Source: a virus (Duplodnaviria; Caudoviricetes). From it: 60,847 nucleotides of DNA. The notes under the pieces are model-generated. The model was not told the origin of the DNA. It was given only the letters and a program-made list of their open reading frames with translations, and did not search any database. Every line of letters starts with the position of its first letter. Position 1 is the first letter of the stretch. The stretch lies in the IMG/VR virus record IMGVR_UViG_3300034137_000025, positions 1 through 60,847 of that record; one strand, given 5' to 3'. Of this stretch, positions 1-60,847 are shown in pieces. Position numbers and translations under genes: made by a program.

Positions 1-127
1 TAAATCGCAAAGTGGGAAAGAATGGAACTCGCGGGTTCGCGGATAATAAAGATATTCTCCTGCTCCAGAAGAAACTCTGAATCAGCTTTCAACTCAGGCA
101 GGCAGTGATAGCACATGTCCTTGTGAA
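1..127 (-). pseudogene. 3' part of the interrupted host gene (sulfotransferase-like, tentative); continues beyond the window
   Basis: Minus strand reads HKDMC-YHCLPELKADSEFLLEQENIFIIREPASSILSHFAI with no stop, in frame with the right flank. Confidence 0.7.
111..127. repeat. att core, left junction: GCACATGTCCTTGTGAA
   Basis: Identical to 60721-60737; flanks diverge on both sides. Confidence 0.92.
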
Positions 128-160
128 GGACACAAAGCTTATTTTTATTTTCATCATATT

Positions 161-259
161 AATCAATCGATTAGAGCAAAAAAGGCCAGCTAAAAGCCGG
201 CCTTTTCCGTATCTTCATGCCCCATTAAAATCAATTACTTACGGTAGCGTTTTGGGGAA
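161..259. promoter_or_regulatory. att arm: two IHF-consensus sites (161-173, 229-241) and an arm-type-like TTTTGGGGAA (250-259)
   Basis: AATCAATCGATTA and AATCAATTACTTA match WATCAANNNNTTR; TTGGGGA recurs at the right end. Confidence 0.6.
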
Positions 260-527
260 GCTTTCCCCCGCCCGTGCTCCAGACATAAGGGGGCGAGCGT
301 GATTCACGCTACAAATCATGCGCTAAATTTACAGTGTCAGAGACAGGACGACTCTGGCCGGCCATACCTGGGTACGATTTTCGATTATGGCTCAGGCTGG
401 ACGTCACTTCTGCACCGTAAATGCCGGATATCCTTCCACGATGCACTGCTAGACTTCAAGAAGACGGGCGGAATTGAAAAAGAAATTCCACCTTCCCACT
501 ATGTGCATTACCCATTTGGATCGAGAT

Positions 528-1061
528 ATGTCGACGATTGGCGCCAGGCTCAAACAGGAACGAACCCGCATAGGGCTCACACAGCAGGAACTGGGGCGGG
601 TCGGGGGCGTTGCAGCTAATGCTCAAGGCTTATATGAGAAAGGAAAAAGATCTCCACGCGCGGACTATTTGGCGAAGATATTAACCGCCGGTATTGATGT
701 CGTTTATGTTCTGACTGGGAAACCTGTGCCGCCAACGGGCAAACCCGGAGCGGACGGTATATCGGATTGGTTCGACACTATCTTCGAGACCTACTTCGAG
801 CAAACCGAACGGTTGGCTTCTCTTTCACAGGCAGGCAGCGAATGGGCGATTCGGCTTCATTCATTTTGTCAAAATCAGCTTGCGATTGTTGCGACTGTAA
901 AATATCTCACTACGGTTGCTGAAGTTCAGGGCTACGACGACATTCCAGAACGTGTCTCCTATTCTTTAGACGCACTCTTAAACAATGCTTTGATAGTCGC
1001 TGAGGCCATTGTTGACAACCAGGTAAAAGCGCTCGGTTCGCACCGGAATGCTTCTACCTGA
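528..1061 (+). CDS. XRE-family HTH regulator with C-terminal extension
   Basis: GARLKQERTRIGLTQQELGRVGGV...YEKGKRSPRADYL is an XRE HTH; start codon uncertain (474/501/528). Confidence 0.85.
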   Translation: MSTIGARLKQERTRIGLTQQELGRVGGVAANAQGLYEKGKRSPRADYLAKILTAGIDVVYVLTGKPVPPTGKPGADGISDWFDTIFETYFEQTERLASLSQAGSEWAIRLHSFCQNQLAIVATVKYLTTVAEVQGYDDIPERVSYSLDALLNNALIVAEAIVDNQVKALGSHRNAST

Positions 1062-1316
1062 GATGTAGTCCCCCGATTGGGGGCGGCTGCTGCAGTGCGT
1101 TAAATTCGATACAGTTTCTCCTCTGGCATGCTGGCGTCACCACCAAACCATTTATCCGCTCGACTTTCGCATCACTCCCATCCAGCTAATGTTTATCTGT
1201 CAGGGACAGGATGACCATGACTGGCCAGCCTCGGTCTGCTTCACACCCCCGCCGAGGCTGGTCATTAGGAATGCAGTCCGTCGCCTGACTTTGCTGCCAG
1301 GAACCCAACTCGATTA

Positions 1317-1332
1317 CTGTATATAACAACAG
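1317..1332. promoter_or_regulatory. LexA (SOS) box
   Basis: CTGTATATAACAACAG matches CTGT-N8-ACAG, 18 bp before the ATG at 1351. Confidence 0.85.
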
Positions 1333-1350
1333 CATATAGATTTTCGAAGC

Positions 1351-1803
1351 ATGCTCATCGACGACGAATCATTCGGGTGCCTTGGGGTTCCGACCTCGCT
1401 GGAAATGCTGAAACAGCAGTCTGAAATGCTCTGCGACGAGGTGGCCGACCTTAACGACAGGCTACGCCGAAGCCGAAGCAACGTCGCCGAGCTGATCGAG
1501 ATGAATCAGCAGTTGGCGGCCGACCGGGATGCTTTGCGGGTGAAGCTCACAGCAACTGAGGCCAGGGTGGTGGGATGCCTTTTGCAAGCTGGACAGAGCT
1601 GCAATCAGATATCCGGACTGAAGAGAATCGCGGAGCAGGTCGATATGTTTCGCAGCGCGCTTGCCGATGCGAAAGAACAGCTCCGCAAATACGAAGCCCC
1701 CGCCGCGAGAAAGCAGCACAGCACACTAGCCGCTGGTGATTGCCCAAAGAACAACAAGCACAACCCCGATCCATCCGGCAGCCAGGAGGGCCGGAAGCAT
1801 TGA
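1351..1803 (+). CDS. SOS-regulated coiled-coil hypothetical protein
   Basis: 150-aa ORF with heptad pattern and an upstream LexA box. Confidence 0.7.
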   Translation: MLIDDESFGCLGVPTSLEMLKQQSEMLCDEVADLNDRLRRSRSNVAELIEMNQQLAADRDALRVKLTATEARVVGCLLQAGQSCNQISGLKRIAEQVDMFRSALADAKEQLRKYEAPAARKQHSTLAAGDCPKNNKHNPDPSGSQEGRKH

Positions 1804-1825
1804 AACAAAGCGATCCATCAAAACC

Positions 1826-2149
1826 TCAGTCGCAATCCGACAGGGATGATGACAGGTGGCCTATCGCGCGTTGATCGCCAGTGTCTAGAGAGCGGTAGTG
1901 TTCAAGCACCGTCCGCTCTTCTTCATTGAGGCTGTCCGCAGCCGTAGGTGTGCGTTTGCCCAATACGACGTACAGGATATCGACGCCTCCTTTTGCGATA
2001 GCAGCCAAGTAGTCGGCTTTGGGTACACGCTTGCCGCTCTCATAGTGACTCTGCGCGTTCGCTTCAACCCCGCCTAATGCCGCGAATCCCTGCTGACTGA
2101 GACCCGTTTTCCCGCGCTCCTCTTTGAGCCGATCGCCCATGTGGTCCAT
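1826..2149 (-). CDS. XRE-family HTH regulator (paralog of 528-1061)
   Basis: MGDRLKEERGKTGLSQQGFAALGGVEANAQSHYESGKRVPKADYL. Confidence 0.85.
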   Translation of the reverse strand: MDHMGDRLKEERGKTGLSQQGFAALGGVEANAQSHYESGKRVPKADYLAAIAKGGVDILYVVLGKRTPTAADSLNEEERTVLEHYRSLDTGDQRAIGHLSSSLSDCD

Positions 2150-2255
2150 AGTGATTACTCCTCTTCCAATCTTCAACCATACGCCCATATCCTCCATATG
2201 AGTGGCTTTATCTAGGCGAAACACTCAAGCGCGATGAGCTGACGGTGGTCAGCGG

Positions 2256-2405
2256 CTTACGCCGGAGCGTGCCGAGGAAATTGCCAAGGAGTGCTGTAGG
2301 CCGGTAGATGACTTCGAGTGGTATCCGGTCGGAAAAGCGGTAGGCAATGTGAGGAATCAGGGGCCTGAGCTGATCCGCCCTTGGATGTGCCTGGCGCGTA
2401 ACTGA
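2256..2405 (+). pseudogene. C-terminal remnant of an SOS response-associated peptidase (SRAP/DUF159)
   Basis: Translates LTPERAEEIAKECCRPVDDFEWYPVGKAVGNVRNQGPELIRP, a typical SRAP C-terminus; the N-terminal MCGR part is absent. Confidence 0.7.
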
Positions 2406-2475
2406 ACGAACTCCCACCCACCTAATCACAACCTAGGAGCGGTAACGCACCACATGATCAGCAGTAGGTGCCGAA

Positions 2476-2682
2476 ATGAGTCGTAGTGAAAGTTTAATCA
2501 GATGGCACGAATTGTGGGCTATCAAAGGCTCAAAGATCACTTGTCGCAACTGCGGAAGCACGCAAGACGAGTACTACAGCGCAGAATGCTTTCGTCATGT
2601 AGCACCATGTACGACAGATCGCCTCAGCCTGTCGCCATGGGAGACGCTCGCTTTTATAGTGCGGCAACCGAGTCACGCATAA
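2476..2682 (+). CDS. Small hypothetical protein with CxxC and HxxxC motifs
   Basis: AGGTG RBS-like site; CRNC and HVAPC are possible Zn ligands. Confidence 0.5.
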   Translation: MSRSESLIRWHELWAIKGSKITCRNCGSTQDEYYSAECFRHVAPCTTDRLSLSPWETLAFIVRQPSHA

Positions 2683-2735
2683 CCAATAGCCGATGTTTAT
2701 CCTCCACACGCCTGAGCGGAGATATTCAGTGAGGA

Positions 2736-3326
2736 TCATTTATCTGCCTTGGTCACGGTTCCTGGCGCCACTGCGAAATCAGTGATGGCAGCATTCTGCT
2801 TCTGCGATTCCTTGGTCATGCCGAAATAGAAGCCAAGCGTCGCCTTCAGCTCGTTGAACCAGAAGCCGATAACGATGCCCGCTGTTACCGATGCGGCGGA
2901 ATCTTTCAAAATACCCTCGGCATACCCGCCGAATACCGCAATCAGAATGCCAAAGGCGCCCATGATCAAAAGAATGGTGATCGCTGGGCGAATGATGTCG
3001 CGCGGCTGCTGAGCGGCCAGATTGCGTGCGCTATCCCGATCACTGGCCTCAGCGGCGTATTGCGCAGCCTCAGCTTGCAACCGATTGTTCTCTGCACTCA
3101 CCGCCAGCTGCTGCAGCTGAACCTTGGCGTTGGCCTGCAACTCCTGAATCTTGACCAAGGCATCCGGGTTAGACGCCAGCGCAGCGTTTATCGCGTCCGG
3201 ATCATTCGTGACGCCCAGAGCGCTCGAAATCAATGCGCCGACGGCTGCGCCGGCAGGACCGCCGAGTAGCGTGCCGACCGTAGGCGCCGCTGCGCCGATC
3301 CCCTTACCGATGTCTGACCAATTCAT
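2736..3326 (-). CDS. Holin-like membrane protein (3TM/GTA-holin-like)
   Basis: Overlaps the endolysin stop; DRDSAR motif followed by two C-terminal hydrophobic helices and GFYFG. Confidence 0.6.
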   Translation of the reverse strand: MNWSDIGKGIGAAAPTVGTLLGGPAGAAVGALISSALGVTNDPDAINAALASNPDALVKIQELQANAKVQLQQLAVSAENNRLQAEAAQYAAEASDRDSARNLAAQQPRDIIRPAITILLIMGAFGILIAVFGGYAEGILKDSAASVTAGIVIGFWFNELKATLGFYFGMTKESQKQNAAITDFAVAPGTVTKADK

Positions 3327-3841
3327 GCGTCCACCGCCCCGTACTGAAGGTTGCCTGCTACCCGGTTGGTCCAGCCCTTGCCGTAGGTGGCAAAGGTCGT
3401 CAGCTTGGTGATGAACAGCAGGCGCTCGGCATTTAGCCGCATGATCACGTCAGTGACGGTCATCGCCTTGATTGCTGCGATTGTGAGCGCCCCTATCTGC
3501 CCGTCATCAGCCACGCCCGCCGCGCGCTGCAACATACGAACCGCGTTACCGTTGCCGTTGTTCACGGCAATGTCGAACAACTGGTAGGCAATCGCTGCGT
3601 CGTACTGGTCGGCCTTGGCGCGATCCCAGAAGTCTCGCTTATAAATAGCCTTTGCCTGGTCGACCGTCAGGCTCTTGATGTCCAGGTCCGGATAGCTCAT
3701 CGCCGAGATGCCGAACTTGGTCCCTTTCAGTTCACCCTGGCCAATGATGCCAGTGGTCCAGTTGCCACGGTCCTTCGGGTCGGCGCCGAATCCGCCTTCG
3801 TGCCCCACCACTCTTTCAAATGCCAAATCGAATCCGGTCAT
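3323..3841 (-). CDS. Endolysin, glycoside hydrolase family 108 with peptidoglycan-binding domain
   Basis: HEGG..DPKDRG, TKFGIS, LQRAAGVADDGQIG, YGKGWTNRV. Confidence 0.92.
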   Translation of the reverse strand: MTGFDLAFERVVGHEGGFGADPKDRGNWTTGIIGQGELKGTKFGISAMSYPDLDIKSLTVDQAKAIYKRDFWDRAKADQYDAAIAYQLFDIAVNNGNGNAVRMLQRAAGVADDGQIGALTIAAIKAMTVTDVIMRLNAERLLFITKLTTFATYGKGWTNRVAGNLQYGAVDA

Positions 3842-3848
3842 ACTTTTC

Positions 3849-4085
3849 TCCAGGCGAAAAAAAACCGCTCAAGGCGGCCGGGATAGCTGAAATTTGTATC
3901 GATGCGCGAACTGGTATCGCTAGCACCCTAATAGGTAGCGTGCTATCGTTAATTCACATTCCGCCATGTTGAGATGCTTGAGGAATGAGAAGCCCTGACG
4001 TCCACGAACCGTCGGGGCTTTGTTTTTTTCAGTGTCCAGGCGAAAAAATACCCGCACTCGGCGGGCTGGATAGCTGAAATTTGTA
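3849..4085. repeat. ~50-bp imperfect direct repeats (3849-3898, 4035-4085), each containing a terminator hairpin
   Basis: Both begin TCCAGGCGAAAAAA and end GGATAGCTGAAATTTGTA. Confidence 0.8.
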
Positions 4086-4094
4086 GTCGTTGAA

Positions 4095-4325
4095 TCAGGC
4101 CGGCGGCGTTTCGGTTTCCGGCTCAGCAACCACCTCAGGCACCGCCTTAACGGTCACGGTGACCTTGGCGCTGTAGGTGTTGAGCAGCTGCGCGGTGCGG
4201 ATGACAGCCTGGGGCTGGTTGGCCATGATTTCGCGGGCCTTGGCATCAGCCAGGGCTTCCGTTGCGAATTCAACCTGGTTGCTTGGATCGAAGGCATTGC
4301 TGGAATTGATAACGATAAAAGGCAT
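4095..4325 (-). CDS. Small phage hypothetical protein
   Basis: GGAG RBS; co-oriented with the tail operon. Confidence 0.7.
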   Translation of the reverse strand: MPFIVINSSNAFDPSNQVEFATEALADAKAREIMANQPQAVIRTAQLLNTYSAKVTVTVKAVPEVVAEPETETPPA

Positions 4326-4373
4326 GGTGAATCTCCACTGGGGTTGATAAAGAAAGGATGTATCTAAAACGTT

Positions 4374-5051
4374 TTATCCTTCCATCTTTGCAAACAAGGC
4401 TGGAAGGTTGAAAGCAAAAGGGTTACTTGATCCGGTAGCTGTTGCGTAAAGCTTGCTCGCATTGAAATCCCAAACACAGCCGAGAGTTCTGCCTGGGTTA
4501 TTGGCTGCGACCATGTTCATTGAAAAGCTATTGATCAGAAGGTATTCATTTGTCGGAAAGTTGAATGGAACGGAGTAGAAGTTCGTGGAACCGATATCCA
4601 GAGCTTGGTTGAACTCATACGTCCACCCTTGAAATGCGCGAGTGAAGGTTGCACATGGAGTTCCACTGTCGAATATAACGCCGCCAGCAGCGTTAAACAG
4701 TCTCATGCCAAAGTGAGCAACAGCCGTCGAGCCAAACGCAGCAGCAAACCATCGGCCGTTCGGCCTCAGGTAATTGACGCTCCGCGTTCGAATCTGGAAC
4801 CCGGTCCAGTTGCCCGGAGAGCCATAGATCATGACGCCCGATATGGCTGAGCTTCCGGCCTCAGTATTTGGCCTGGCGAAGACCAGTGGCGGTTCCTGGC
4901 TGGTGATCGCGGCGGCAAACGTTACGATAGCAGTAAGATTGCCCTCCGCATTCGGTGAGTAGGTGCCAGATTGCAGCACCGTCAGCCGGGCCAGTTCAGA
5001 GTCAATCGTCACTACGTTGCTGTTGTTCATGAACCTAAGGCCAAAAGTCAT
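4374..5051 (-). CDS. Tail-tip associated protein
   Basis: FGLR.. and FGMRLFNAAGGVIFDS motifs are typical of proteins following J. Confidence 0.75.
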   Translation of the reverse strand: MTFGLRFMNNSNVVTIDSELARLTVLQSGTYSPNAEGNLTAIVTFAAAITSQEPPLVFARPNTEAGSSAISGVMIYGSPGNWTGFQIRTRSVNYLRPNGRWFAAAFGSTAVAHFGMRLFNAAGGVIFDSGTPCATFTRAFQGWTYEFNQALDIGSTNFYSVPFNFPTNEYLLINSFSMNMVAANNPGRTLGCVWDFNASKLYATATGSSNPFAFNLPALFAKMEG

Positions 5052-5392
5052 GCAAACCTCACGACGATAAGACGCATGGACCCGGCAGTCGCGGCCCACG
5101 CTCCGGCTGGGAATCCGCGATTGTAGTTATAGACTCGTGCAACTCCGTCCAGCATTTGCGCCTCAAACTGAGTAGCTGTCGAACTGTAAGATCCAACTGG
5201 TAGCAACAGTGCAGTGGCATTTCCGGCGTTACCATCTACAGCCCACTGTTTGTACCCAGATCCCGAAAAGGCTCCGTCTGCCGTCCATCCTACGTTGTCG
5301 ACCAATACGGACAGTATTGCCCGTATCGTGAAGGAGTTTTCATTGATCTGGAGGGCGCCATTGGCACCGTAAGTTCTGAGCCCGAATGCCAT
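5048..5392 (-). CDS. Tail-tip associated protein
   Basis: MAFGLRTYGANG start; coupled to the J stop and the next gene. Confidence 0.75.
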   Translation of the reverse strand: MAFGLRTYGANGALQINENSFTIRAILSVLVDNVGWTADGAFSGSGYKQWAVDGNAGNATALLLPVGSYSSTATQFEAQMLDGVARVYNYNRGFPAGAWAATAGSMRLIVVRFA

Positions 5393-8300
5393 TATCCAAG
5401 ATTCCCCAACTGTACGCGCAGAACGCCGTTCTGGTCATAAACGTTCATGCCGTTTCCGTTAATCAATACCCTTCCCGCACCGGGTATCGTGCTGTTTATC
5501 TCGAAGATGCCGTCTTTACGAAGTACCCAGCCAGACTGGTTAGCTACATAGTTACTCGAATATATTTGATCTCCAATTTTCGCATTGGTGATCGATGCGT
5601 CTCGAATAAATGCATCCGCAATAAAAGTCTGGCTGCCCTGCACTGCAAACGGAGATACTGCAGCTGCGCCAGAGACGTTGACTATGGCGAATCGGTCGGC
5701 AGCCACAATGAACTGGCTTTGAAATACACCGTTGTTATTCTCTAGGCCAAGCCCGTAGCCTGTCGCGTAGTACTGCCCCCCAGCTGTCACCGCCAATTTA
5801 ACGCTATACATCGCCGACGCCTTTCCGCTGACATCCGCTGCAGTGCTCATGGCTGTTTGTGCATTAGCGGCGGCTGTTCCTGCTGTTGCTTGCACGCCAC
5901 TAATCTGGGTTGCCAAGGAGCTGTCAGCATTGGCGCGCGTCGTCGCTTCAGACTGAATAGCTGCCTGAACGGTGCCAACGGTAGACGATAGCGTGTCAAT
6001 GCGGGTCGATTGCGCCGTGATGGCCGTACCCTGCTGCGTGACGGTGGCCTGGGTCGAGGACAGAGCCAGCGCCGAGGCGGATGGCGACTTGCTGCCAATC
6101 GAGATGTACGCCATGTCAAACGTGCCGGCGGTGTCGCCGCTGTTCACCACGTCCAGCCGGATTGCGGTGTTGGTCTTACCCACCCAGGCGGCATTGGCCG
6201 AAAGGTCAATCTCGACGGTCTGCCAATCGGTGGTCGTGATGTCGATGGGGAACGATCCGGTGCGCGCCTCAGCAAGACCGCCGTCCTGATTGGCCCAGTA
6301 GATGCGCCCACTGCCGCGAGTGGTACCCGAACGCTTGAAGCGCATGCGCAGGTATGGGTAAAGCGTCCCGTTGGCGTCAATCCCAATGCTTTTGAAGAAC
6401 TGCCCTGCGCCAGTCATCCGCGCAAACGTAGGGTTGGCGACCAGTGTCGGGCTTCCCGCCTGTACCGATGCAGTCCAGCCGTACAGGTTGCTCAGGAACT
6501 CCCAAGAGGCGGTCGACGCCGAGAACGGAGACGACTCGCCGGTAATGCTGGCTTTCAACGCTGTCAGGCTGGACGCCTGCGAGGTGTTCACGCCCTCGGC
6601 GTTCGTGACCCGCGTTGTCAGCGCGTTGAGCGCCGTAGTCGTGGCCTTGGTCGCCAGTCCGTCAGTGACGCTGTTGACGGTGCTGCTTAGGTCGGTGACT
6701 TGTGAAGACAGGGATGTAAGCGTCGTACCCTGCTGCGTGACGGTTGAGGTCAGCGCGGCAGTGGCGGCAGACTGGGCGTTATCGCCAAGCAGCACAGACG
6801 GTGCATAGGCTGTCGCAACAGCGCCTTCCTGGAGCTGGACATTATCGAACTCGATCCACATATCAGCGGCTGCGCCTGACCGGTTGATAAGTCGTGCGGG
6901 GAAAATCTGCGTCCTAACGGCGGTGGCCGGTGCGGTGGCAGTGAATTGCATCCTCGTAAAGGTTGTCGACCCGATGGCGACCTCTGGAAGCTGTGCAGTA
7001 GACAGTAGAGTGCTGGCTGCGTCGAGCCACTGGATGTACATCGTAAAGCGAGCGGACGGACTTGATACTCGGGCATAGGTACTAAGGGTGTATGTCTTGC
7101 CCCCCTCTACTTTGGGCCTTTCTCCATCAGCGATGTTATAGGTCATGCCGATATACCCGCCATTAGCGAGCCCGGCGTAAGAATTCCGCACGGCTTTGTT
7201 GCTCAGCGCTAAAGGCGAGTCTACTAGGCTGACCGAGATAGTCGCCCCGGCTGACCCATCGGTGCGCCACCAAAGCGGGCGGGTGCCGTCAGACGAAAGC
7301 TGCTCAAACGAACTGTTTGGCAGCAGGTTGTCGCCGCCTGCGCCCGCTAGGTTATTGGTCAGCGTGACGATATTCGCGCTGGCGCTGGTCAGGCCTGTCT
7401 CGGTCTGAGTCACACGCGCGGTCAGAGCGGTAGTTGCCGCAGCTCCAGCCGTTATGGCGTCATCGGTCAGACCGTTGTTGTCTTTCCAGCCTGACACCAC
7501 AGGGCTGAGTTCGAACTGGGCGCGATCCCACTCGGCAAAGCCGGTGATGGACGTCCCGCTGACAGGGCCGCGAACTCGATACAAAAGACGAACTGAGACC
7601 GCGCCATCGGGCACTGCTGCGCTGGTGCGCGACAGGCGCTGCCAGTCCGCTGTCAGGTTGACCGACGTTGCGCCATCCGAGGAGATGATCGTTCCAGCTG
7701 CGCTTTTCCATTGAAAATATAGCTGGGAGATCATGCCGACCGTGCCGCGCACATACGCAGACATCGTGACAATTTGCCCTGGCGAAACTTTAGGCTCCTG
7801 TGCACCTCCCGTCGAAAGATCCATATAGATCGATGCGTTAGGAATCGTCAGGTCAAGCCTTTGAGCCTTGCCAGCAGGATCAAGCGTTGACGTTACCTGC
7901 GACACTGAGACGGTCGCCAGCCCATTCAATGCCCAGCCGTCAGCCATACCGCTTGTTGCGCGCTCAAATGACGGGTTGAACAGCATGTTCTCCCCGCCGA
8001 CGCTACCGAGGTTGGCTGTTACATTCGTCAACGCCTGGCCTTGCGCCGTGATGTCGGTCCCTTGCTGCGTGACGGTATTGCTCAGCGCTTGAACCGTCGA
8101 GGCGTCGGCTTTTCCCGGCAGTGCGTTGGTCAGGCCGGTAATGGCCGTCCCGTGACTGGTGAGCGTTCCCTCGGCAACGGTCACCCGACTCCCGATGCTC
8201 TGGACGACACTTGATTCGGCCTTGCCGTCGAGCGCTGTCTGGACGCCGGTAATCTGGTTGGCCTGGGCCGTATTGACGCCTTCAATGGACGTGATTTTCG

Positions 8301-11175: not shown

Positions 11176-11232
11176 GCTTTTCTCCAGGCATAAAAAAACC
11201 GCCTCATGGGCGGCTGGTGGTCACTGTTCGGT

Positions 11233-11844: not shown

Positions 11845-11892
11845 ATTTTCTCCTCAATAAAAAACCCGCCGAAGCGGGCTTTATGAATATCG

Positions 11893-12243: not shown

Positions 12244-12387
12244 GATGTTCCCTCATAGATGAAGGACTGAGCGTATCACCGGGCTGTCTGCCTATCTAGC
12301 ACGCCGAAGACGCGCTGGGAGTGCATTAGGAGCTAAAGAATTATTCGCTGGGGGCGATATAATTACTCCACAAAAAGGATTTTTAGC

Positions 12388-50903: not shown

Positions 50904-50994
50904 AGCGCATGCAATCCCACGCCAACCAGCGCCGCCGCCCACTTCAACTGCAAATCCCACCCAGCGGGCTCTTGGCCCTGACGGAGAAACGCCC

Positions 50995-51342: not shown

Positions 51343-51379
51343 TCCCCGCTGCACCCCTTTCCCATAGAGACCTGAAAAC

Positions 51380-52192: not shown

Positions 52193-52244
52193 TACTAACC
52201 CGCGCCTGCATGAGCTATGCTACCAACTGCCATGCAGGCGAGAG

Positions 52245-52965: not shown

Positions 52966-52995
52966 ATGCGATTCCTTCGCGGTTTTTGCTAAACG

Positions 52996-53035
52996 ACACC
53001 AATACTCCACTTCAACGAATCACACCACACTGGCG
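52996..53035. repeat. 40-bp dispersed repeat, copy 1
   Basis: ACACCAATACTCCACTTCAACGAATCACACCACACTGGCG; 36/40 identical to 54098-54137. Confidence 0.85.
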
Positions 53036-53055
53036 TCAATGCACGATCGATTCAC

Positions 53056-53287
53056 GGGAAGCCCTGGCTAAGCTGATGGAATGGGCTGGCTCGAACAGCA
53101 AGGTGAGGCGCTGACGTTGATGATCCATCATCTGCACGGGCTGGGTGCTGCTCGGTGCCTGCCCCTGCTTTCGCCGCCGCGCCACGTTTTCGTACTAACG
53201 GAATGTGTGGCGCTTGAGTTTCGCAACAAAAGCCTACTGGCAATCATGAAAGACCCGGGCGACGAGATTATTGAGCCTCAGTATTGA
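53056..53287 (+). pseudogene. Truncated, frameshifted remnant of a phage early protein
   Basis: REALAKLMEWAG and EQQGEALTLMIHHLH lie in different frames; no start codon with RBS. Confidence 0.55.
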
Positions 53288-53290
53288 CGT

Positions 53291-53581
53291 CTACTTGAGA
53301 GAGTTTCGATCAGTGAAGACATTACCGCGGACAGATGGCGCGTAGACTTCGGTCGCGCCCATCAGGCTAGCATTCACAAGCTCCACCATCACAGCCGCCT
53401 TAGTTAAGCCGCAACCAGGCAGTAGCTCGTAATTTTTTTTGGAAATCCTATCTATCTGCATTTCGTATTTTTCTTCGCTATCGCAGATCAAGGAACCCTT
53501 CTGAAGCATGTGCGCCGCCGCGCTGGACTCAGCACCCACAAGGAAGGCAGACAGCCCGGTGACAGCTAGAAAAAACCTCAT
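53291..53581 (-). CDS. Small secreted protein with two Cys
   Basis: AAGGAG RBS; signal peptide. Confidence 0.7.
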   Translation of the reverse strand: MRFFLAVTGLSAFLVGAESSAAAHMLQKGSLICDSEEKYEMQIDRISKKNYELLPGCGLTKAAVMVELVNASLMGATEVYAPSVRGNVFTDRNSLK

Positions 53582-53695
53582 TGACTCACTCCTTTGATCC
53601 GGCTCCATGCCGGTCACCCGTAATACCCCAACTCAAACCAAATAGCCACTATGTCGCATCCGGTCACGGAGGGCGGCGCATGCACTCGAGGTAAC

Positions 53696-54061
53696 TCAGT
53701 TTCTACCAAACAAATCTTCAACGATAAGCGCAGGTATGCGGGCGAAGCCGGCAGCAATAGACAGATGATAGCGATGATAACCATCGAAAAGCGCATATCT
53801 GAATTCAGTATTCCTGCCTACGATTGGGTAGACCTCAATGGGCGGAATCTCAGCGCCAGATAGCATGCCTTGAACGATTGATTCAGCTCTATCGATATTT
53901 AGAAGGGAGACGTCGGGCTTTCTTTCGGGCGGCCGTATGTCTTCGAGGGCGAGGAGAAACACGATATCTCGAGCGCTTTCCCATAAGTAGCTTTCTGAAT
54001 CGCATGGCCTCTTGATGCCTGCTTGGGTGAGGATCTGTCTGGCTTGAACGCGTACGTCCAT
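53696..54061 (-). CDS. Stand-alone ParB/Srx-like domain protein
   Basis: IPPIEV...YALFDGYHRY...IPA. Confidence 0.75.
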   Translation of the reverse strand: MDVRVQARQILTQAGIKRPCDSESYLWESARDIVFLLALEDIRPPERKPDVSLLNIDRAESIVQGMLSGAEIPPIEVYPIVGRNTEFRYALFDGYHRYHLSIAAGFARIPALIVEDLFGRN

Positions 54062-54097
54062 TTGATACCACCTTAGGCCGGTCAAGTGCTGGTCAGC

Positions 54098-54137
54098 ACA
54101 CCATTACCCCACTTCAACGAATCACGCCACACCGGCG
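54098..54137. repeat. 40-bp dispersed repeat, copy 2
   Basis: ACACCATTACCCCACTTCAACGAATCACGCCACACCGGCG, followed by GAGG RBS and the ATG at 54148. Confidence 0.85.
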
Positions 54138-54147
54138 AGGATGATCT

Positions 54148-54477
54148 ATGTCCGTTCAGCACGCAGCGTTCACGAAGACTTTCACCGAGCCTGGCACGTT
54201 CCAGGCGCTCTACGCTGCACAGAGGTGGCTGGATGAAAACGGCTACAGCTACGGACCTGGCTCGGCAATGCATCCTGTCCCGGTCCTCAAAGGCGACTTC
54301 ATCATCGCCAAGTGGAAGAACCTGACCCGCAAGGAGATAGCCCAGCTCGACGGCAAGATCGACGGCAATTTCCGCGAAGGCCCGGTCACTGTGACGCTGA
54401 AGGTCGAGCCTCAGGCAATATCACTTTCGACACCACCTCAAGGCCCGAGACGCTTAAACCGTCCCCCTTTTGGGTAA
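54148..54477 (+). CDS. Phage hypothetical protein
   Basis: GTFQALYAAQRWL and IAKWKNL; phage-like codon usage. Confidence 0.75.
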   Translation: MSVQHAAFTKTFTEPGTFQALYAAQRWLDENGYSYGPGSAMHPVPVLKGDFIIAKWKNLTRKEIAQLDGKIDGNFREGPVTVTLKVEPQAISLSTPPQGPRRLNRPPFG

Positions 54478-54498
54478 ACATCGGCGCGGGCATGCTTC

Positions 54499-54780
54499 CT
54501 ACTTACACACACCGGTATTGAGGTAGTTGGTTACGGCCTTGATGTATGGCGAATTCTTGATCCACGTTGCATCTCGCATTGTCAGATCAACTGAGCCTCC
54601 ATTCTTATGGCCGACGATACTGGTGAATACCTGAGGTCCGGTCATGGTCTGCGGGCCGTATTCGATCCGGAATTCGTTCATTTTCGGATAAATAGCGCTG
54701 CGCACAATCCACTTGATGCAGTCACTGTCGCTGGGACCGCCGGCGGTCAGTTTGTAGTACACGTCATCGTGGCGCTTCAT
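54499..54780 (-). CDS. Hypothetical protein or remnant
   Basis: 93-aa ORF with weak RBS; in-frame stops upstream. Confidence 0.35.
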   Translation of the reverse strand: MKRHDDVYYKLTAGGPSDSDCIKWIVRSAIYPKMNEFRIEYGPQTMTGPQVFTSIVGHKNGGSVDLTMRDATWIKNSPYIKAVTNYLNTGVCK

Positions 54781-55022
54781 TTGGATAACAATGAGTGACA
54801 GCCACGCGCGGACCTAAAGGCGAGCATCGCCGACGTCAGCGATTTACACTCGCTCGCCCCTAGTCTGTAACAACCGGTCAAACGAATCACTCAGAATTAC
54901 GAGACGAACGAAAGAGATCCTAAAGCAAGTCTGGAACCTTGCTCATCAACTGGACAGCACTAGTTAACGAACCTTCTCTGGCTACTACCATATCACTCGT
55001 GGCAATAGAACAACGCCTCCCG

Positions 55023-55352
55023 CTAGACCGGTATTATTGCCTTAACTAAGCCATCGATAGCGATGTCCAGCAAACGGTATGTTATTTTTTGAAGCTTTGC
55101 TAACACCTTAATATTTGCATTATTAGCTTCTATTTGCGCTATTTTCTTTCCCTTTTTAAGAACCAACATGACATCATCGTATTTTATTTTTCCTTCCGCA
55201 TAGTAAACCAATGTTTTTGCGGTCTGCTCAGCCATGAATTTTAAAAAATCATTTTCGTCTTTCTTCGCCTGTCCTAAAAGCTCTAGGAATTCCTCTTTCA
55301 TTGCTTTGAGAGACTCGTCCTTTATACCTTCAATAACGTCATCAATGTTCAT
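55023..55352 (-). CDS. AT-rich helical hypothetical protein
   Basis: Starts 9 bp after the lipoprotein stop; highly charged. Confidence 0.75.
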   Translation of the reverse strand: MNIDDVIEGIKDESLKAMKEEFLELLGQAKKDENDFLKFMAEQTAKTLVYYAEGKIKYDDVMLVLKKGKKIAQIEANNANIKVLAKLQKITYRLLDIAIDGLVKAIIPV

Positions 55353-55361
55353 CTTAAACCC

Positions 55362-55811
55362 CTACTTGCATTTAGCCTCTGGATGTGCGCACTCACCTAT
55401 AATCGCCCTATCATATGCCGGACCACTGACATCACGCATGCGATTAGCCTGCTCACGACTCAACACATAACGCCCGCGCCTAATGGCTTCAACATCGTCT
55501 GAAAATATTGAGTGCAAAATCATAATATTTGCAGTGCGCCATTGTTCATTCAAACTTCTGGAAAACTCAATCGCCTCTTGAAATTTCAACTCAAGGCTAT
55601 CGACAGCGGCATCAAATTCATGCCGATCATAGACATGACCGGGGGCAGCGGTTACATCATTTATCATTTTGATATGTGCCGCTTTGAGAGAGGTTAGATT
55701 TTGATGCGCGTCAGCGTTGTACCCCCCAATGAAAGTACAAGATATCAAAAGCAAAAGCATACTAAATATAACGCTAGCAGGACCTACCCGACCGACCCTA
55801 AGACTTAACAT
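55362..55811 (-). CDS. Putative lipoprotein
   Basis: AGGAG RBS; LLLLISC lipobox-like signal. Confidence 0.7.
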   Translation of the reverse strand: MLSLRVGRVGPASVIFSMLLLLISCTFIGGYNADAHQNLTSLKAAHIKMINDVTAAPGHVYDRHEFDAAVDSLELKFQEAIEFSRSLNEQWRTANIMILHSIFSDDVEAIRRGRYVLSREQANRMRDVSGPAYDRAIIGECAHPEAKCK

Positions 55812-55983
55812 ATCGCCCACTCCTGACTGAAGTGATAAAGGCGAATACTCCAAACTACCTTCGCTGCGGTGTTTACGATAGAAATTCCTAGCTAGCCTAA
55901 GCTCGCAACAGCAGAAATTTCTGATCTTAACTCATAGACTACGAGTTGGAATAATGCAACACAAATCGGAGGAACGGGCACAA

Positions 55984-56409
55984 CTACAGCGGCGTGCCTA
56001 CATCTCGACCAGTTTGTTCACTGGTGCTGGATTCCTCAGCAGCGGTTGTAACCACCTCGTCGTGCTCGGATATTATGTTTTTTAGGCGCAGAGCAAGATG
56101 CCGGGTATCAAAGCTTTCATCCTCCAAATCCAGAAGTATGGCGTCGATACGGCTCCGGCTCATTCGATTGCTTCTCCACTTCCTCATGAACCCTCCGGCA
56201 GCCGCCATTCCCGTAAGCGCCGCCGCCGCCGCTGTAAGAGCAGAAGCAAACACCCTTCCGTCCGCAATCTGTATGAAGACGCCTGCGGCGATGCTGCATA
56301 TGATCGATCCGAAAATCGAAACGTGATGAGCTGTGCTCCAAGCACGTTGCCCGCGTGTATAGCGACGTCGCCAAACTTCACACTGTTCTTTTATTAGGAG
56401 ACGATCCAT
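55984..56409 (-). CDS. SLATT/DUF4231-like 2TM protein
   Basis: GGAGG RBS; two TM helices followed by KWRSNR and a helical tail. Confidence 0.65.
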   Translation of the reverse strand: MDRLLIKEQCEVWRRRYTRGQRAWSTAHHVSIFGSIICSIAAGVFIQIADGRVFASALTAAAAALTGMAAAGGFMRKWRSNRMSRSRIDAILLDLEDESFDTRHLALRLKNIISEHDEVVTTAAEESSTSEQTGRDVGTPL

Positions 56410-56695
56410 AAAGTAACCTCCAAGCAACGTATTCAGGGTAGTACATTTCCAAAAATCAGCCATGCCCCCCCGCGGGCTAGGTTATGTGTTTTACCAGTAG
56501 ATAGAGGTGACCACTCTCTAGCTTCGATGCGGTCGCACCAGTGCCCCCAATAACGCAGAACCATCGCGTCCAACAGTCTCAGCCAGTGGTGGCGGCAAGA
56601 GCGCGATATCGTCGCCAGAGCACTACGATGACCCTCTGCGGGTCGCTCCATACCTGATCAGCTGCTACGGCACGGAGAACATGAGCAGTTGCGGA

Positions 56696-56993
56696 ATGCC
56701 CGCGCCGACGATCACCACAAAGGATCGGCTGGCTCTGGTCACCGTCATTGTCAAGGGCACGCCCTATGTGATCGCCGACATTTGCCTGCGCATGCTCCAA
56801 CCGGCCGAGCTGTACAAGGCCCAAGGCTTCCCCGCCGACTACATCATCGACAAGGGTCGCCGACGGCAAGCCATTCACCAAAACCCAACAGGTTCACATG
56901 TGCGGCAACAGCGTCAGCCCTCCCCCAATGGCTGCGCTTGCCCAGGCCAACGACCCTTGGCGCATCTCAACTCAACAGCGGGAGGCAGCATGA
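56696..56993 (+). pseudogene. C-terminal fragment of a DNA cytosine methyltransferase, frameshifted
   Basis: LRMLQPAELYKAQGFPADY, then a frame change to DGKPFTKTQQVHMCGNSVSP (motifs IX/X); N-terminus absent. Confidence 0.8.
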
Positions 56994-57317
56994 CTCGACT
57001 TTACTTGGCAGGCCCCCATGACCGGCCTGCCCGAATTCAATTACCCGGCCTTCCACGCAGAAGCTGCCCGGCTCCGGGCCCTGGGCTTCGAAGTCGTCAG
57101 CCCCGCCGAGATCAACCCAGAGGGCGGCACCTGGCACGAATGCATGCGCCGCGACGTTGCCATGATGGTTACCTGCGACCAGATCGCAACCCTGCCCGGC
57201 TGGGCCAACTCGCCAGGCGCACAGCTGGAGGTCTACATCGGCCAGCGCCTGGGCATTGATGCGTCACATGCATCCAACTTCACCGATTCGAAGGTGTTCG
57301 AATGCTCAAGCCGCTGA
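56990..57317 (+). pseudogene. DUF4406 (deoxyribosyltransferase-like) gene, frameshifted in a C5 run
   Basis: MTRLYLAGP and MTGLPEFNYPAF are offset by one extra C at 57013-57017. Confidence 0.8.
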
Positions 57318-57487
57318 CAGTCGTCCACGTCCCCAAACACAACCTGATCGTCTTCGAGAGCCTCCCACCGAGCGTAACGCCGGAAGACGCTCTGCTACTC
57401 GGCCGGGCCATTCAACAAGCTGGCATCGATGCGCTTCAAGGCGCCAAGGGCGAGCAGTCGTATCCTCCGTTGGTGGAATCGGCTTAA
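57302..57487 (+). CDS. Small phage hypothetical protein
   Basis: AAGGTG RBS; 61 aa. Confidence 0.45.
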   Translation: MLKPLTVVHVPKHNLIVFESLPPSVTPEDALLLGRAIQQAGIDALQGAKGEQSYPPLVESA

Positions 57488-57568
57488 TCCTCGCCCCAAA
57501 ACATAAATGCCAAACTCGCAATGAATACCGCGGTGAGCAGCGTAATTAGAGCGAATGCTGCAATGAGT

Positions 57569-57817
57569 TCATTCAAGTGGCTTCTCCCACTCCAACGAAG
57601 TTCCAACCTGGCGATGTCGGAACTTGGCGACAAACAATGACTCGTTGATGACGTCTGCCGCAGCACCAGAGATAGGATTCGGTATCTCCTCATCGTATCC
57701 CGCGACAGCAAGCTTCGCCTGGACCGCCAAAGCGTAAGGGTCGAAACCCAACTCGAAGGCAGCGGTGAAGATCGCAACAAGCGTTTGCATGTAAACAGAT
57801 TCGGTCGGGGTGCTCAT
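57569..57817 (-). CDS. Small hypothetical moron protein
   Basis: GGGAGAG RBS; 82 aa. Confidence 0.5.
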   Translation of the reverse strand: MSTPTESVYMQTLVAIFTAAFELGFDPYALAVQAKLAVAGYDEEIPNPISGAAADVINESLFVAKFRHRQVGTSLEWEKPLE

Positions 57818-58131
57818 GATCTCTCCCTGAGTAACCTCTAGGGTCGCAGTCACTCCGTGCGCGCCCTTTGTTGTTTCATTGAAGTCGCTTTTCGCGATCC
57901 ATTCAAATGAATAGCCGATGAACGCAATGAATGCAGACAGTCGGTCTGCCAGACACGATTCGCACTGTCCTTGACGGGCTCAACACGTACGAAAATCGTA
58001 ACGCCAGACCGAAAACGCTAATTCTCCGCGCTCCGTCGCAAATTCGTTTAACAATCTCAAAGTCAGCCGCTGTAGCGGTAAGGACGAAGTCAGGCCTGAG
58101 AAACTGAACAATTCTCCGCATATCACATAGG

Positions 58132-58617
58132 TCAGCGATCAGCGGAAAATTCGCACTCCGAAACAAACGTGACGGCTTTAGCGTCAGCGCCGCCTATAGG
58201 GTTTGATTCATGGAAGGTAAAAAATCCAAAGCCTGACGCTGGGTACAGTGAGAACACTGCAACTCCATCCTCGGTGACTCTAATAGCGGTTATCAAATCG
58301 CTAGACAAGTTCAATATATATGCCTGCTGTGCGCCTGGAGTGGGGACACCCAGGCCCTTCGCGGACTTCGTATTCCCGAAGACATAGGTAAGACGTTTCA
58401 TGTCCGAATCATCCAGTATGAAAGTGGGAAAAACACCTGTATAGGAATCCTCAATCTGATTGATCCGTTTTCCGCTTTTTTCCGCAAGCCAACCGCCGAC
58501 ATCGACTCGCGGACCTTTCGGCTCATCGCAAACTACAGTGAAAAATGGTTTGGCAAGGCTTGGCCCTGCCATCAAAGCCATGACCAAACAGAGTGGCACC
58601 ACATTCGTTCGCTTCAT
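58132..58617 (-). CDS. Secreted hypothetical moron protein
   Basis: Signal peptide ending SLA; Cys near each end of the mature part. Confidence 0.7.
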   Translation of the reverse strand: MKRTNVVPLCLVMALMAGPSLAKPFFTVVCDEPKGPRVDVGGWLAEKSGKRINQIEDSYTGVFPTFILDDSDMKRLTYVFGNTKSAKGLGVPTPGAQQAYILNLSSDLITAIRVTEDGVAVFSLYPASGFGFFTFHESNPIGGADAKAVTFVSECEFSADR

Positions 58618-58760
58618 GACAGCTGCCCGCTATGTGAATGAGCCCCGAGTCTTATAAAGACTAGATCAGTTCTTCGAGTGCGCCCGTGCAGTGCGCGCCA
58701 GCCAGCCTAATCCTTCCCCCTACCTTTAGCCTGCCGGTGATCGGCGGGCGGAGCATCCCT

Positions 58761-59258
58761 ATGTCTGACGCACTGAACCGCTTTCATCTAGCCGCCAACG
58801 ATGTGCTGGTCGCACTCGGCGGAAAATTGTGGCCCGAGGCCAAGATCACACTGGTTGTTTACACCCCAGACAGCCCAGAGCGCGACATCGTCCTGAAGGA
58901 TCGAGCGGTGTCCCCTGACGAAGTTGTCAGCTCGTTGCGGCGCCGTGTCCTGAGCATCGATGGCGACAACGCCTACAAACGCGACCTGTGTAACTCGATT
59001 GTCGGGGCCATATGGATGGGTGCCCAAAATAAGCTATCACCGCCATCCGGACATTGGGGCCAGCGTTTCTGGGACATTGGCAGGGCCGAGGGCGAGCTTC
59101 GAGAAGAGTTGGTAGCTGCGTTGAAATTGACACGCGAGAACCTGCGGGCCTGCCAAGCAACCATTCACCTTTCCGGTGGGTTCGATCCAGCCTATGTGAA
59201 CGACGCCCAGGCTGCGATGAAGGTTGCGGACGTCGCGCTGGCCAAAGCAAACGCCTGA
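58761..59258 (+). CDS. Phage hypothetical protein
   Basis: GGAG RBS; HWGQRFWDIG motif. Confidence 0.7.
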   Translation: MSDALNRFHLAANDVLVALGGKLWPEAKITLVVYTPDSPERDIVLKDRAVSPDEVVSSLRRRVLSIDGDNAYKRDLCNSIVGAIWMGAQNKLSPPSGHWGQRFWDIGRAEGELREELVAALKLTRENLRACQATIHLSGGFDPAYVNDAQAAMKVADVALAKANA

Positions 59259-59312
59259 TCACCACACAACCAAAACCTTCTGCCGCCATAGGGCGGCGCG
59301 GAGCATCACCCT

Positions 59313-59555
59313 ATGAGCAAAGTTACTCTCGACGAGTGGGCCGCCGACCAGTTCCGGACGCCACCAACGCTGAACACCCTCCGCAAATGGGCGCGGGAGG
59401 GAAGGATTGCGCCAGCCCCCGTAAAGCACGGCCGCAGCTACTATGTTGAAGCCGAAGCGCAATACACCGAACCAGAAGCGCCAAATGTCCGCGTCGTGAG
59501 CGGCAGCCTTATCAGTCGAATAGCGAGTGCACGCAATGGTTCCAAGGCCGCGTAA
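59313..59555 (+). CDS. xis: Excisionase
   Basis: TLDEWA...TLRKWAREGRIAPAPVKHGRSYYV; overlaps the int start. Confidence 0.92.
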   Translation: MSKVTLDEWAADQFRTPPTLNTLRKWAREGRIAPAPVKHGRSYYVEAEAQYTEPEAPNVRVVSGSLISRIASARNGSKAA

Positions 59556-60639
59556 CACCGGATCAAAAGATTTGCCACCCAACTTGTACCGAAAGACCGA
59601 TAGCCGGAATGGAGTAATTTATTACACCTACCGCGACCCAGTAAGTGGTCGAGTGTTCGGCCTGGGCAAAGACAAAGATGCTGCGATTCGTGAGGCCGTC
59701 GCCGCCAATCATGCAGAAGTGCTAAAGCCAACACTGACCGCGCGCATTGCGGAACCGGTGTTAGAGAGAGGTAAAACATTCGCAGAATGGTTAGTTGAAT
59801 ATAAAGCCGATTACTTGGAAAAAGACTTGTCCAGTCACACGATGCGAAATTTTAAAAGTCGCATCGTGCGCTTAGAGGCAAGGTTCGGTCATATGCCGAT
59901 CCGTGACATAAGGACAATGGACGTAGCCGCATATCTAACGGGCTTCGCCAAGGAAGGAAAGGCAAATATGTCAAAAGCTCTCAGGTCTATGTTGCGCGAC
60001 ATCTTCGCAGAAGCCATTGCGGCCGGCTTATGCGATATCAATCCTATCGACGCAACCAAAGCGGCGCGGGCGAAAGTTACGCGGGAGCGCCTCAGCCTGG
60101 AGCTGTGGAAGGCGATTTACGATACAACAGATCGCCCATGGCTGAAGCGAGCAATGGAACTTGCGCTGCTAACTGGCCAGCGCCGTGATGACATTCGATC
60201 CATCCTCTTCAAGGATGAGCAGGATGGCTTTCTCCATGTCGTACAGTCAAAGACCGGGGCCAGGCTTCGAATAAGCACCGCGCTTCGCTTGGAGGCTATT
60301 GACCTTGATTTAGCGACAGTCATCAAGCGCTGCAGGGATCGCGTTTTATCTCAGCACATGGTTCACCATTCGCAGTCGATCGCGAAAGTAAAAGGCGGAT
60401 CTGCCCTTACCCGGGAAACCATGACGCGAATATTCGCCAAAACCAGAGATAAAGCCGCTGCTGCCTATGGCATTCAACTGAGCGACCATCCGCCTAGTTT
60501 TCACGAAATGCGATCCCTCTCCGCCCGCGTTCATGCGGCGGAAGGGCGCGATCCTCAAAAGCTGCTGGGCCACAAAAGCGCGGCGATGACTGACGTATAC
60601 CGTGATAGTCGCGGCACCGAGTGGATCGACGTTGCTTAG
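59536..60639 (+). CDS. int: Tyrosine integrase (lambda family) with arm-binding domain
   Basis: LPPNLY, TGQRRDD, FHEMRSL, LLGH and catalytic Y all present. Confidence 0.96.
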   Translation: MVPRPRNTGSKDLPPNLYRKTDSRNGVIYYTYRDPVSGRVFGLGKDKDAAIREAVAANHAEVLKPTLTARIAEPVLERGKTFAEWLVEYKADYLEKDLSSHTMRNFKSRIVRLEARFGHMPIRDIRTMDVAAYLTGFAKEGKANMSKALRSMLRDIFAEAIAAGLCDINPIDATKAARAKVTRERLSLELWKAIYDTTDRPWLKRAMELALLTGQRRDDIRSILFKDEQDGFLHVVQSKTGARLRISTALRLEAIDLDLATVIKRCRDRVLSQHMVHHSQSIAKVKGGSALTRETMTRIFAKTRDKAAAAYGIQLSDHPPSFHEMRSLSARVHAAEGRDPQKLLGHKSAAMTDVYRDSRGTEWIDVA

Positions 60640-60665
60640 TTTGGGAGGGGAGTTTTGTGGATATA

Positions 60666-60714
60666 TTGGGGAGGTTTTGGGGAAAGATTTAAACCCAATA
60701 AAATCAAAGGCTTG
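60666..60714. promoter_or_regulatory. att arm: tandem TTGGGGA arm-type-like repeats and an IHF site (60702-60714)
   Basis: TTGGGGAGGTTTTGGGGAA; AATCAAAGGCTTG matches the IHF consensus. Confidence 0.6.
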
Positions 60715-60720
60715 AAAATG

Positions 60721-60737
60721 GCACATGTCCTTGTGAA
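60721..60737. repeat. att core, right junction: GCACATGTCCTTGTGAA
   Basis: Identical to 111-127; about 80 bp after the integrase stop. Confidence 0.92.
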
Positions 60738-60847
60738 ACACGGCGCGCTGCTGCCGCGCTTCACGCAGCAGCGCCTTGACCCCTGCATAAGTCGTCGGCA
60801 AACCACAGTCCAGATTATCCGACGGGATCGGCGAATCCTGCCCGAAA
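60721..60847 (-). pseudogene. 5' part of the interrupted host gene (sulfotransferase-like, tentative); begins beyond the window
   Basis: Minus strand reads FGQDSPIPSDNLDCGLPTTYAGVKALLREARQQRAVFHKDMC up to the att core. Confidence 0.7.

Follow-up and report, generated by a model that had tools for sequence, protein, structure and literature searches.

What does it mean for a bacterium that a prophage lies in the middle of one of its genes, and that excision of the prophage would put this gene back together? The question is raised by the IMG/VR virus record IMGVR_UViG_3300034137_000025 (Duplodnaviria; Caudoviricetes), whose full length of 60,847 nt is referred to here as the window. It holds a lambdoid prophage between two short pieces of host DNA, which are parts of one and the same Pseudomonas gene of the sulfotransferase family. 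A preliminary description made from the letters of the window had regarded the arrangement as a candidate regulatory switch. From the analysis reported here, we consider it likely that the prophage is an ordinary, reversible insertional knock-out at a recurrently used intragenic attachment (att) site, and not an evolved host regulator.

We found that the 17-bp direct repeat GCACATGTCCTTGTGAA is present in exactly two copies in the window, which are identical in 17/17 bp at the two junctions, and that the identity ends at both edges of this core. The following features make up the junctions.

111..127: left copy of the att core, exact repeat
60721..60737: right copy of the att core, exact repeat
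128..60720: lambdoid siphovirus prophage of 60.6 kb (PHROGs and Pfam scans)
1..127, minus strand: 3'-side piece of the host sulfotransferase gene, codons ~77-117 including the core (translation; tblastn with residues 70-117 of the intact homologue P0001)
60721..60847, minus strand: 5'-side piece of the same gene, residues 40-81
60346..60846, minus strand: read-through frame of 166 amino acids, open at its 5' end, consisting of native residues and then 124 unrelated codons antisense to int

Joining positions 1-127 and 60738-60847 in silico reproduced the open minus-strand frame that the preliminary description had reported. It comprises 78 codons, contains ...LLREARQQRAVFHKDMC followed across the join by YHCLPELKADSEFLLEQENIFIIREPASSILSHF, and corresponds to residues 40-117 of P0001, a protein of 247 amino acids; the insertion point falls at codon 76-81 of 247. 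The 5' half indeed runs antisense to int, as had been described, and is terminated by the stop codon at 60346-60348, while upstream of the 3' half there are just 11 in-frame phage codons back to a TAA. When the intact homologue was compared with the whole window by tblastn, the matches were confined to the two flank pieces; the phage thus provides no replacement 3' end, in agreement with the earlier claim, and no new 5' end either. At the nucleotide level, the 3'-side piece is 98% and the 5'-side piece 94% identical to the intact locus L001. This locus is collinear with the host flanks on both sides and the break in collinearity, at L001 6227-6242, coincides with the core, which excludes chance.

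The window is a stand-alone virus record with 110 bp of flank per side, and wider flanks were taken from the contigs of a metagenome-assembled genome (MAG). Two loci of this MAG are 100% identical to positions 1-6152 and 54718-60847 of the window and extend the host flank by 6.4 kb and 5.2 kb, respectively. One of the extending loci (L012) carries the 3'-side piece on to its stop codon, so that the remainder of the gene, like the downstream operon, lies to the left of the window, and the other (L051) prolongs the 5'-side piece to its ATG. The gene rebuilt from these flanks is a clean open reading frame (ORF) of 247 codons from ATG to stop, which matches P0001 at 230/247 residues with no gap. 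In silico, excision thus restores the frame as had been predicted; no stops or frameshifts appear beyond the window, and full-length homologues span the junction.

Searches with the 41-residue 3' fragment returned 33 longer proteins (166-247 amino acids), of which 32 contain the domain PF19798 (Sulfotransfer_5). The best of these is P0001, a Pseudomonas protein annotated as 'sulfotransferase family protein' that is 98% identical over the fragment. The two window fragments of 41-42 residues gave nothing useful when compared with Pfam on their own. When species-representative genomes were scanned with P0001, 52 loci were found, namely 42 in Pseudomonas and four elsewhere that are full or near-full, four that match the C-terminal part only (starting at residues 68-75), and two that match residues 1-82 only. 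The intact homologues P0001 and L001 score 55 bits against PF19798, for which the cut-off is 23.2 bits, whereas the halves of the rebuilt gene score 22.3 and 21.8 bits, each just below the cut-off, over the adjoining profile ranges 3-79 and 77-196. In an alignment of 34 sequences, H10, P11, R12, S15 and T16, the stretch H77-K78-D79-M80-C81-Y82-H83, as well as R105 and S113 are invariant. In the PDB, apart from antibodies, the profile of this alignment had just two matches of note, to the CurM sulfotransferase (4gbm, E 1.6e-5) and to the OLS sulfotransferase domain (4gox, E 0.032). PRSGST and LVRHP..S of CurM align to the loop at residues 10-16 and to R105..S113 of the host gene, which we take to be the 5'-phosphosulfate-binding loop and the 3'-phosphate-binding motif, respectively. 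Judged from its sequence, the target is a gene of the sulfotransferase family that depends on 3'-phosphoadenosine 5'-phosphosulfate (PAPS), its activity being predicted. The label sulfotransferase-like, given earlier to the target, is supported by PF19798 and by CurM as the nearest solved relative.

The gene is the third of an operon that encodes, in this order, a small ORF, a transaldolase-like protein, the sulfotransferase, a short-chain dehydrogenase/reductase (SDR), a Rossmann-type oxidoreductase, a protein of 200 amino acids, an exporter of the major facilitator superfamily and an adenosine 5'-phosphosulfate (APS) kinase. In L001, overlaps of 4 nt couple the sulfotransferase gene to the upstream transaldolase-like gene and to the downstream SDR gene. 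The nearest language-model clusters of the 404-residue operon protein are saccharopine-dehydrogenase-like Rossmann proteins, which we treat as a lead only. Since the operon has a private APS kinase and an exporter, its predicted content points to a pathway for a secreted sulfated small molecule. Targeted full-text searching of the literature, with subscription journals outside its coverage, retrieved no description of the att site or the operon; the passages of PMC8719888 that shared search terms with the operon concern unrelated matters.

The GC content changes markedly across the insertion, from 44.5% at positions 1-110 to 62.7% at positions 60738-60847. These values agree with the ~45% and ~63% given in the preliminary description, but its suggestion that the two halves have different histories does not hold, because the same step is native to the uninterrupted gene in L001 (over 110 bp on each side of the core, 65.5% upstream and 43.6% downstream). 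The intact loci L046 (62.7/49.1%) and L002 (57.3/44.5%) also show a step from upstream to downstream, and in the other four intact loci it is small or absent (66.4/62.7%, 61.8/52.7%, 52.7/51.8% and 50.0/47.3%).

The window element is one of five insertions at the same core, which we found in four genomes and whose Int proteins are 82-100% identical to that of the window.

Contigs C11 and C147 of the MAG G001: the window element, 60.6 kb, Int 100%
G001:C196:14530-57608 (loci L054-L056): second prophage in the same MAG, 42.3 kb, Int 93%
G002, isolate Pseudomonas sp. DSP3-2-3: element with its junctions on two contigs, Int 94.6%
G003, another MAG: element with Int 84%
G162:C4, locus L053 (G162:C4:88000-104500), ~1909-15060: remnant of 13.1 kb, Int 82% over residues 289-367 only

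The second prophage of G001 splits another copy of the operon, which is 75-80% identical to the first. The two split copies in this MAG indicate either that the operon is duplicated, with a prophage in each copy, or that the bin is mixed. A restored ORF was also obtained in silico for the isolate, and the gene halves are open at G001:C196, in G003 and in G162. Outside the int-xis-att region, the same-core elements share almost no DNA with the window, and the recombination cassette is therefore common to different phages. The G162 remnant consists of a C-terminal Int stub of 79 residues, a partial portal gene and a protease gene in inverted orientation, as well as some connector and tail genes. 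A match to Xis was not found in this degenerate element, which has not retained the excision machinery; as most of int is lost, it appears to be locked in and unable to excise.

To place these insertions in the genus, 401 evenly sampled Pseudomonas genomes were considered. A match to the gene was found in 41 of them, comprising 37 with a full-length copy (at least 60% identity), two with a copy split at the core, and two with a distant or partial match. With 41 matching genomes among 401, 37 of which hold a full-length copy, the operon can be described as accessory and usually intact, and the core is occupied in 2/39 of the gene-carrying genomes. The lysogens are species-level relatives with 60-95% protein identity, a distance at which saturation of synonymous sites would be expected to defeat a dN/dS comparison of the split halves.

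Why is this particular position used? When all 725 stretches of 17 nt were ranked by nucleotide conservation among 42 intact genes, the core occupied rank 16, and 14 of the top 15 stretches lie at gene offsets 225-243, overlapping or adjoining the core. VFHKDMCYHC, which is encoded at the core stretch, is invariant in 42/42 intact genes. The core thus lies in the most conserved DNA of the gene, and this would explain the choice of the site by itself. Relatives of Int from IMG/VR and Joint Genome Institute (JGI) metagenomes, which are 71-81% identical to it, directly adjoin truncated genes for hybrid sensor kinases at the following loci.

L079:2659-3276: Int relative beside a truncated kinase gene
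L077:2670-4100: Int relative beside a truncated kinase gene
L063, L065, L066, L078 and L080: further Int relatives beside truncated kinase genes

One group of these relatives adjoins a receiver domain whose match begins at profile position 46 of 111, with an Hpt domain after it, and another adjoins a hybrid kinase with HisKA, HATPase and receiver domains. By their position, the kinase-adjacent integrases mark two further predicted intragenic att sites of the Int family. As the relatives adjoin other truncated genes, integration into conserved motif-coding DNA within genes would be a habit of the Int family that is not specific to the sulfotransferase. The IMG/VR relatives comprise 11 loci, eight of which are trimmed at the int stop codon, so that the att sites are absent from these records; no sulfotransferase fragment was found in five trimmed records, an empty result that is uninformative. 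The 17-nt junction word had five matches in IMG/VR, all unrelated and due to chance, and a 42-nt stretch of core plus arm had no match (0) in the JGI metagenome contigs.

Thirteen public runs contain part of the junction stretch, and none of them is recorded as RNA. The probable source run (X1) contains 99% of the sampled words and four runs contain a third to half of them. Contigs of the runs X1-X4 were aligned to the intact reference L001:5200-7400; these are contigs, so that depth carries little weight. In X2, a contig of 19.1 kb (record 8) continues uninterrupted through the whole stretch with 161 differences from L001, a number that equals the sum of the differences counted in the lysogen pieces of X1 (86 and 75). 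Sequence comparison thus indicates that X2 contains near-identical host DNA with an empty site, and that occupancy is polymorphic. The core is bridged as well by contigs of X3 (records 13 and 14) and of X4 (record 19). The two lysogen junctions are represented in X1 by a contig that stops at 6242 and one that begins at 6227, each with a depth of 36.4. A separate contig of 43 nt (6214-6256), with a depth of 19.7 and one difference from L001, spans the empty junction. Its length is that expected for k-mers private to an empty junction with a 17-bp core (31 + 12, assuming 31-letter words). With fewer than 31 letters on each side of the junction, the contig gives a weak hint that the empty form exists in the X1 sample, either through excision or in non-lysogenic siblings. 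Given the depth of 19.7 compared to 36.4, empty sites would not be rare in this sample.

The machinery for integration and excision is encoded next to the right junction, and its putative DNA sites lie in the two phage arms; the repressor gene is listed with them.

59313..59555, plus strand: excisionase Xis, Exc family (PF07825, E 1.1e-33)
59536..60639, plus strand: lambda-type tyrosine integrase Int (PF09003, E 4.9e-25; PF22022; PF00589, E 1.2e-11)
128..300: left phage arm, with IHF-consensus matches at 161-173 and 229-241 and a hairpin at ~183-209
60640..60720: right phage arm, with ATATTGGGGAG-type repeats at 60661-60683 and an IHF-consensus match at 60702-60714
41701..42522, plus strand: CI-type repressor (HTH_3 and Peptidase_S24)

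Int comprises arm-binding, core-binding and catalytic domains, and its sequence fits the pattern R..K..HxxR..H..Y, which we take to be that of the tyrosine recombinases; the xis gene is adjacent. Three of the four matches to the consensus of integration host factor (IHF) in the window lie in the att arms, compared to 1.2 matches expected per window, with the reservation that these are consensus matches only. The left arm is partly conserved in the other four same-core elements. The ATATTGGGGAG-type repeats, which also follow int in the Int relatives, are candidate arm-type Int sites. The hairpin at ~183-209 has 15 pairs, is GC-rich and flanked by A/T runs, and folds with a z-score of -2.7, although a simple terminator scan did not list it. 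It looks like a bidirectional terminator-like element; it would follow directly downstream of int and attP when the phage is circular, and in the prophage it would block read-out toward the host gene. The search for terminator-like sites in the stretch from the host 5' fragment to int gave nothing above chance-level matches, and transcription of the host operon would therefore run antisense into int and xis. In CI, we presumably recognize the Ala-Gly, GDSM and KR motifs known from LexA and CI proteins. Overall, the Pfam domains and the IHF-consensus matches support the earlier impression that int, xis, the IHF sites and a cleavable CI are intact, and the phage is complete and probably inducible.

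Taken together, these data are most readily explained as follows. A lambda-like temperate Pseudomonas phage would integrate by Int-mediated site-specific recombination at the 17-bp core within the sulfotransferase gene. The insertion would part the putative 5'-phosphosulfate-binding loop (residues 10-16) from the 3'-phosphate-binding motif (R105..S113), and, by a polar effect, would detach five downstream genes from the operon promoter. With the cofactor motifs parted and the downstream genes cut off, the lysogen would suffer a knock-out of the sulfated-metabolite pathway, i.e. negative lysogenic conversion. Excision by Int and Xis would restore the gene exactly. The use of the site would follow from recognition of the gene's best-conserved nucleotide stretch by one integrase clade rather than from host regulation.

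Several observations weigh against the view that this is an ordinary knock-out. Both halves of the gene are open and every examined flanking operon gene is full-length in each of the five lysogens, that with the decayed G162 element among them. A capacity for restoration could thus be under selection, although recent insertion explains the open halves equally well. By analogy, one intragenic site that recurs across a phage clade is also seen for accepted switches such as comK and hlb. Finally, the 43-nt contig of X1 fits frequent excision as well as a mixed population.

The foremost alternative is active lysogeny, in which a cue would trigger non-lytic excision, the operon would be rebuilt and expressed, and the phage would later re-integrate, as for comK and as proposed for hlb. 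The position in the middle of the gene, the exact restoration in silico, and the intact state of Int, Xis and both cores all suit such a switch, as do the use of one site by five elements, the gene halves and operon genes that stay open in lysogens, and the contig of attB length in the probable source run. In addition, operon transcription entering int and xis in antisense orientation would offer a possible coupling. However, the idea draws on the geometry of the locus, and nothing points to non-lytic excision. In a lambdoid phage whose CI can be cleaved, SOS induction normally ends in lysis, so that a restored gene would be found mainly in dying cells, and the S24 domain of CI indeed predicts SOS excision that is coupled to lysis. 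Domesticated switches keep their recombinase, unlike the G162 element, from which int and the bulk of the phage genes are gone. Occupancy is low (2/39 carriers in the genus sample) and polymorphic in near-identical hosts, the Int family integrates inside unrelated genes too, and the fact that the core falls in the best-conserved DNA of the gene is enough to explain the site. On this balance, we regard a switch at this locus as unlikely. There is likewise only a slim chance that the Pseudomonas phage clade with its shared int-xis-attP cassette acts as a reversible, antisense-coupled on/off switch of the sulfated-metabolite operon, with restoration in a subpopulation without lysis.

It is also conceivable, though very unlikely in our view, that the disruption itself is selected and that the Int clade targets the gene for this reason, with phage or lysogen gaining from a silenced pathway, for example because PAPS is spared or because a product with effects on phage adsorption or on competitors is no longer made. 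In favour of this, one accessory operon has been hit repeatedly and independently, at a point that parts two cofactor motifs and would detach five downstream genes. However, the operon is unoccupied in most of its carriers, the literature search gave no description of the cluster or the att site, and the Int relatives target sensor-kinase genes instead, so that no common pathway is silenced. That the junctions are chimeras of assembly or binning is scarcely credible, for although the window is a stand-alone record with short flanks and the prophage is broken over two contigs in the MAG, both junctions are present at 100% identity in independent MAG contigs with 5-6 kb of syntenic host flank as well as in Logan contigs of run X1, and four other insertions show the same break point. 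We therefore retain the reversible knock-out as the preferred reading.

The prophage itself is organized in modules for lysis, tail, head, terminase, NinG, O/P-like replication, CII, CI, RecET, xis and int. Besides genes for the major tail, connector, major head, scaffold, head morphogenesis and portal proteins, the PHROGs and Pfam scans identified the following genes.

3323-3841: endolysin
5392-11175: central tail fibre J
18076-21270: tape measure protein
30262-31584: large terminase subunit

A close phage relative was not found, as megablast of 20.8 kb against 50,697 phage records returned short patches only. The O-like gene (39281-40138, minus strand) contains three iterons with a spacing of 19 nt and GGTCTCAGTGAGAC-type inverted repeats at 39753-39821, which are probably the replication origin of the phage. 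Beside the immunity region, a gene at 44047-45210 (plus strand) encodes a protein of 387 amino acids with a helix-turn-helix (HTH) and a Peptidase_M78 domain that matches RmrA in PADLOC (PDLC03949, E 1e-132). This similarity suggests a RosmerTA-like toxin-antitoxin defence module; the candidate partner upstream (43425-44150 / 43777-44043) had no Pfam or PADLOC match. Two extra XRE-type HTH regulators are encoded near the left att arm, outside the main immunity region, at 474-1061 (plus strand) and 1826-2224 (minus strand). Among the tail genes, direct repeats of 38 nt (92% identical) at 13129-13166 and 15023-15060 bracket a segment of 1.9 kb with low GC content (~49-52%), which contains an ORF at 13868-14986 (minus strand) assigned to phrog_6191 (no assigned function) and is possibly a moron cassette. 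Finally, a 78-nt tandem duplication in perfect register (96% identical, 35545-35700) lies inside the ORF at 35427-35864 (minus strand) and encodes a 26-residue repeat in a protein with no assigned function.

Comparison with known systems helps to place the locus. Phage lambda shares with it the arm-binding N-terminal domain of Int, an Exc-family Xis that overlaps the start of int, and arm-type repeats and IHF-consensus sites around a short core, the latter sites being predicted here. The attB site of lambda is intergenic, between gal and bio, whereas the 17-bp core described here lies inside a gene, and the host is a Pseudomonas. In Listeria monocytogenes, phi10403S/A118 in comK is likewise a complete inducible prophage in a non-essential coding region whose excision rebuilds the ORF. 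For comK, niche-specific non-lytic excision and expression after excision were shown experimentally. In contrast, it is the geometry of our locus that resembles comK, and it combines a lambda-type tyrosine Int and Xis with a metabolic gene in an operon as the target. Active lysogeny at Listeria comK is the subject of PMC6872733 and PMC8235301. The Sa3int phages in hlb of Staphylococcus aureus (and L54a in geh) resemble the present case in that a tyrosine-integrase clade uses a fixed core in an accessory enzyme gene; the enzyme is lost in lysogens and restored by excision, as would be the case here, and occupancy varies between strains. An active-lysogeny role for hlb has been argued (PMC12607152 and PMC9694928). 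The hlb system differs from ours in host, target and phage type, and the Sa3int phages bring conversion genes, whose functions take the place of the lost one.

In Bacillus subtilis, SPbeta in spsM and skin in sigK also split a gene that is rebuilt by site-specific excision of the (pro)phage element. These systems use serine recombinases with dedicated directionality factors and operate in the mother cell, which is terminally differentiated; the recombinase is retained by degenerate elements. The element in the window has a recombinase of another type, a tyrosine Int, and its degenerate counterpart in G162 has lost the integrase. A tyrosine-integrase clade dedicated to one conserved intragenic position in many bacteria is presented for the dusA-specific integrases (Farrugia et al. 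2015, PMC4482086). The likeness lies in a clade dedicated to a site inside a protein-coding gene. The dusA elements reportedly insert near the 5' end and preserve the gene. In our case, by contrast, the insertion falls at codon 76-81 of 247 and brings no replacement sequence.

Gene-disrupting integration of prophages is already well known, and the locus is chiefly a clean and well-documented new example. What is new is an intragenic att site in soil- and plant-associated Pseudomonas that is used repeatedly by one integrase clade and was previously undescribed in the literature searched. Its use is predicted to knock out an uncharacterised PAPS-dependent operon, and conserved motif-coding DNA inside genes emerges as the habitual target of the lambda-type Int family. 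With Pseudomonas sp. DSP3-2-3, a lysogen is available in culture that provides a practical handle both on the switch idea and on the function of the operon. If true, a switch at this site would be the first case of active lysogeny in Pseudomonas, and also the first in which such a switch controls a pathway for a specialised metabolite.

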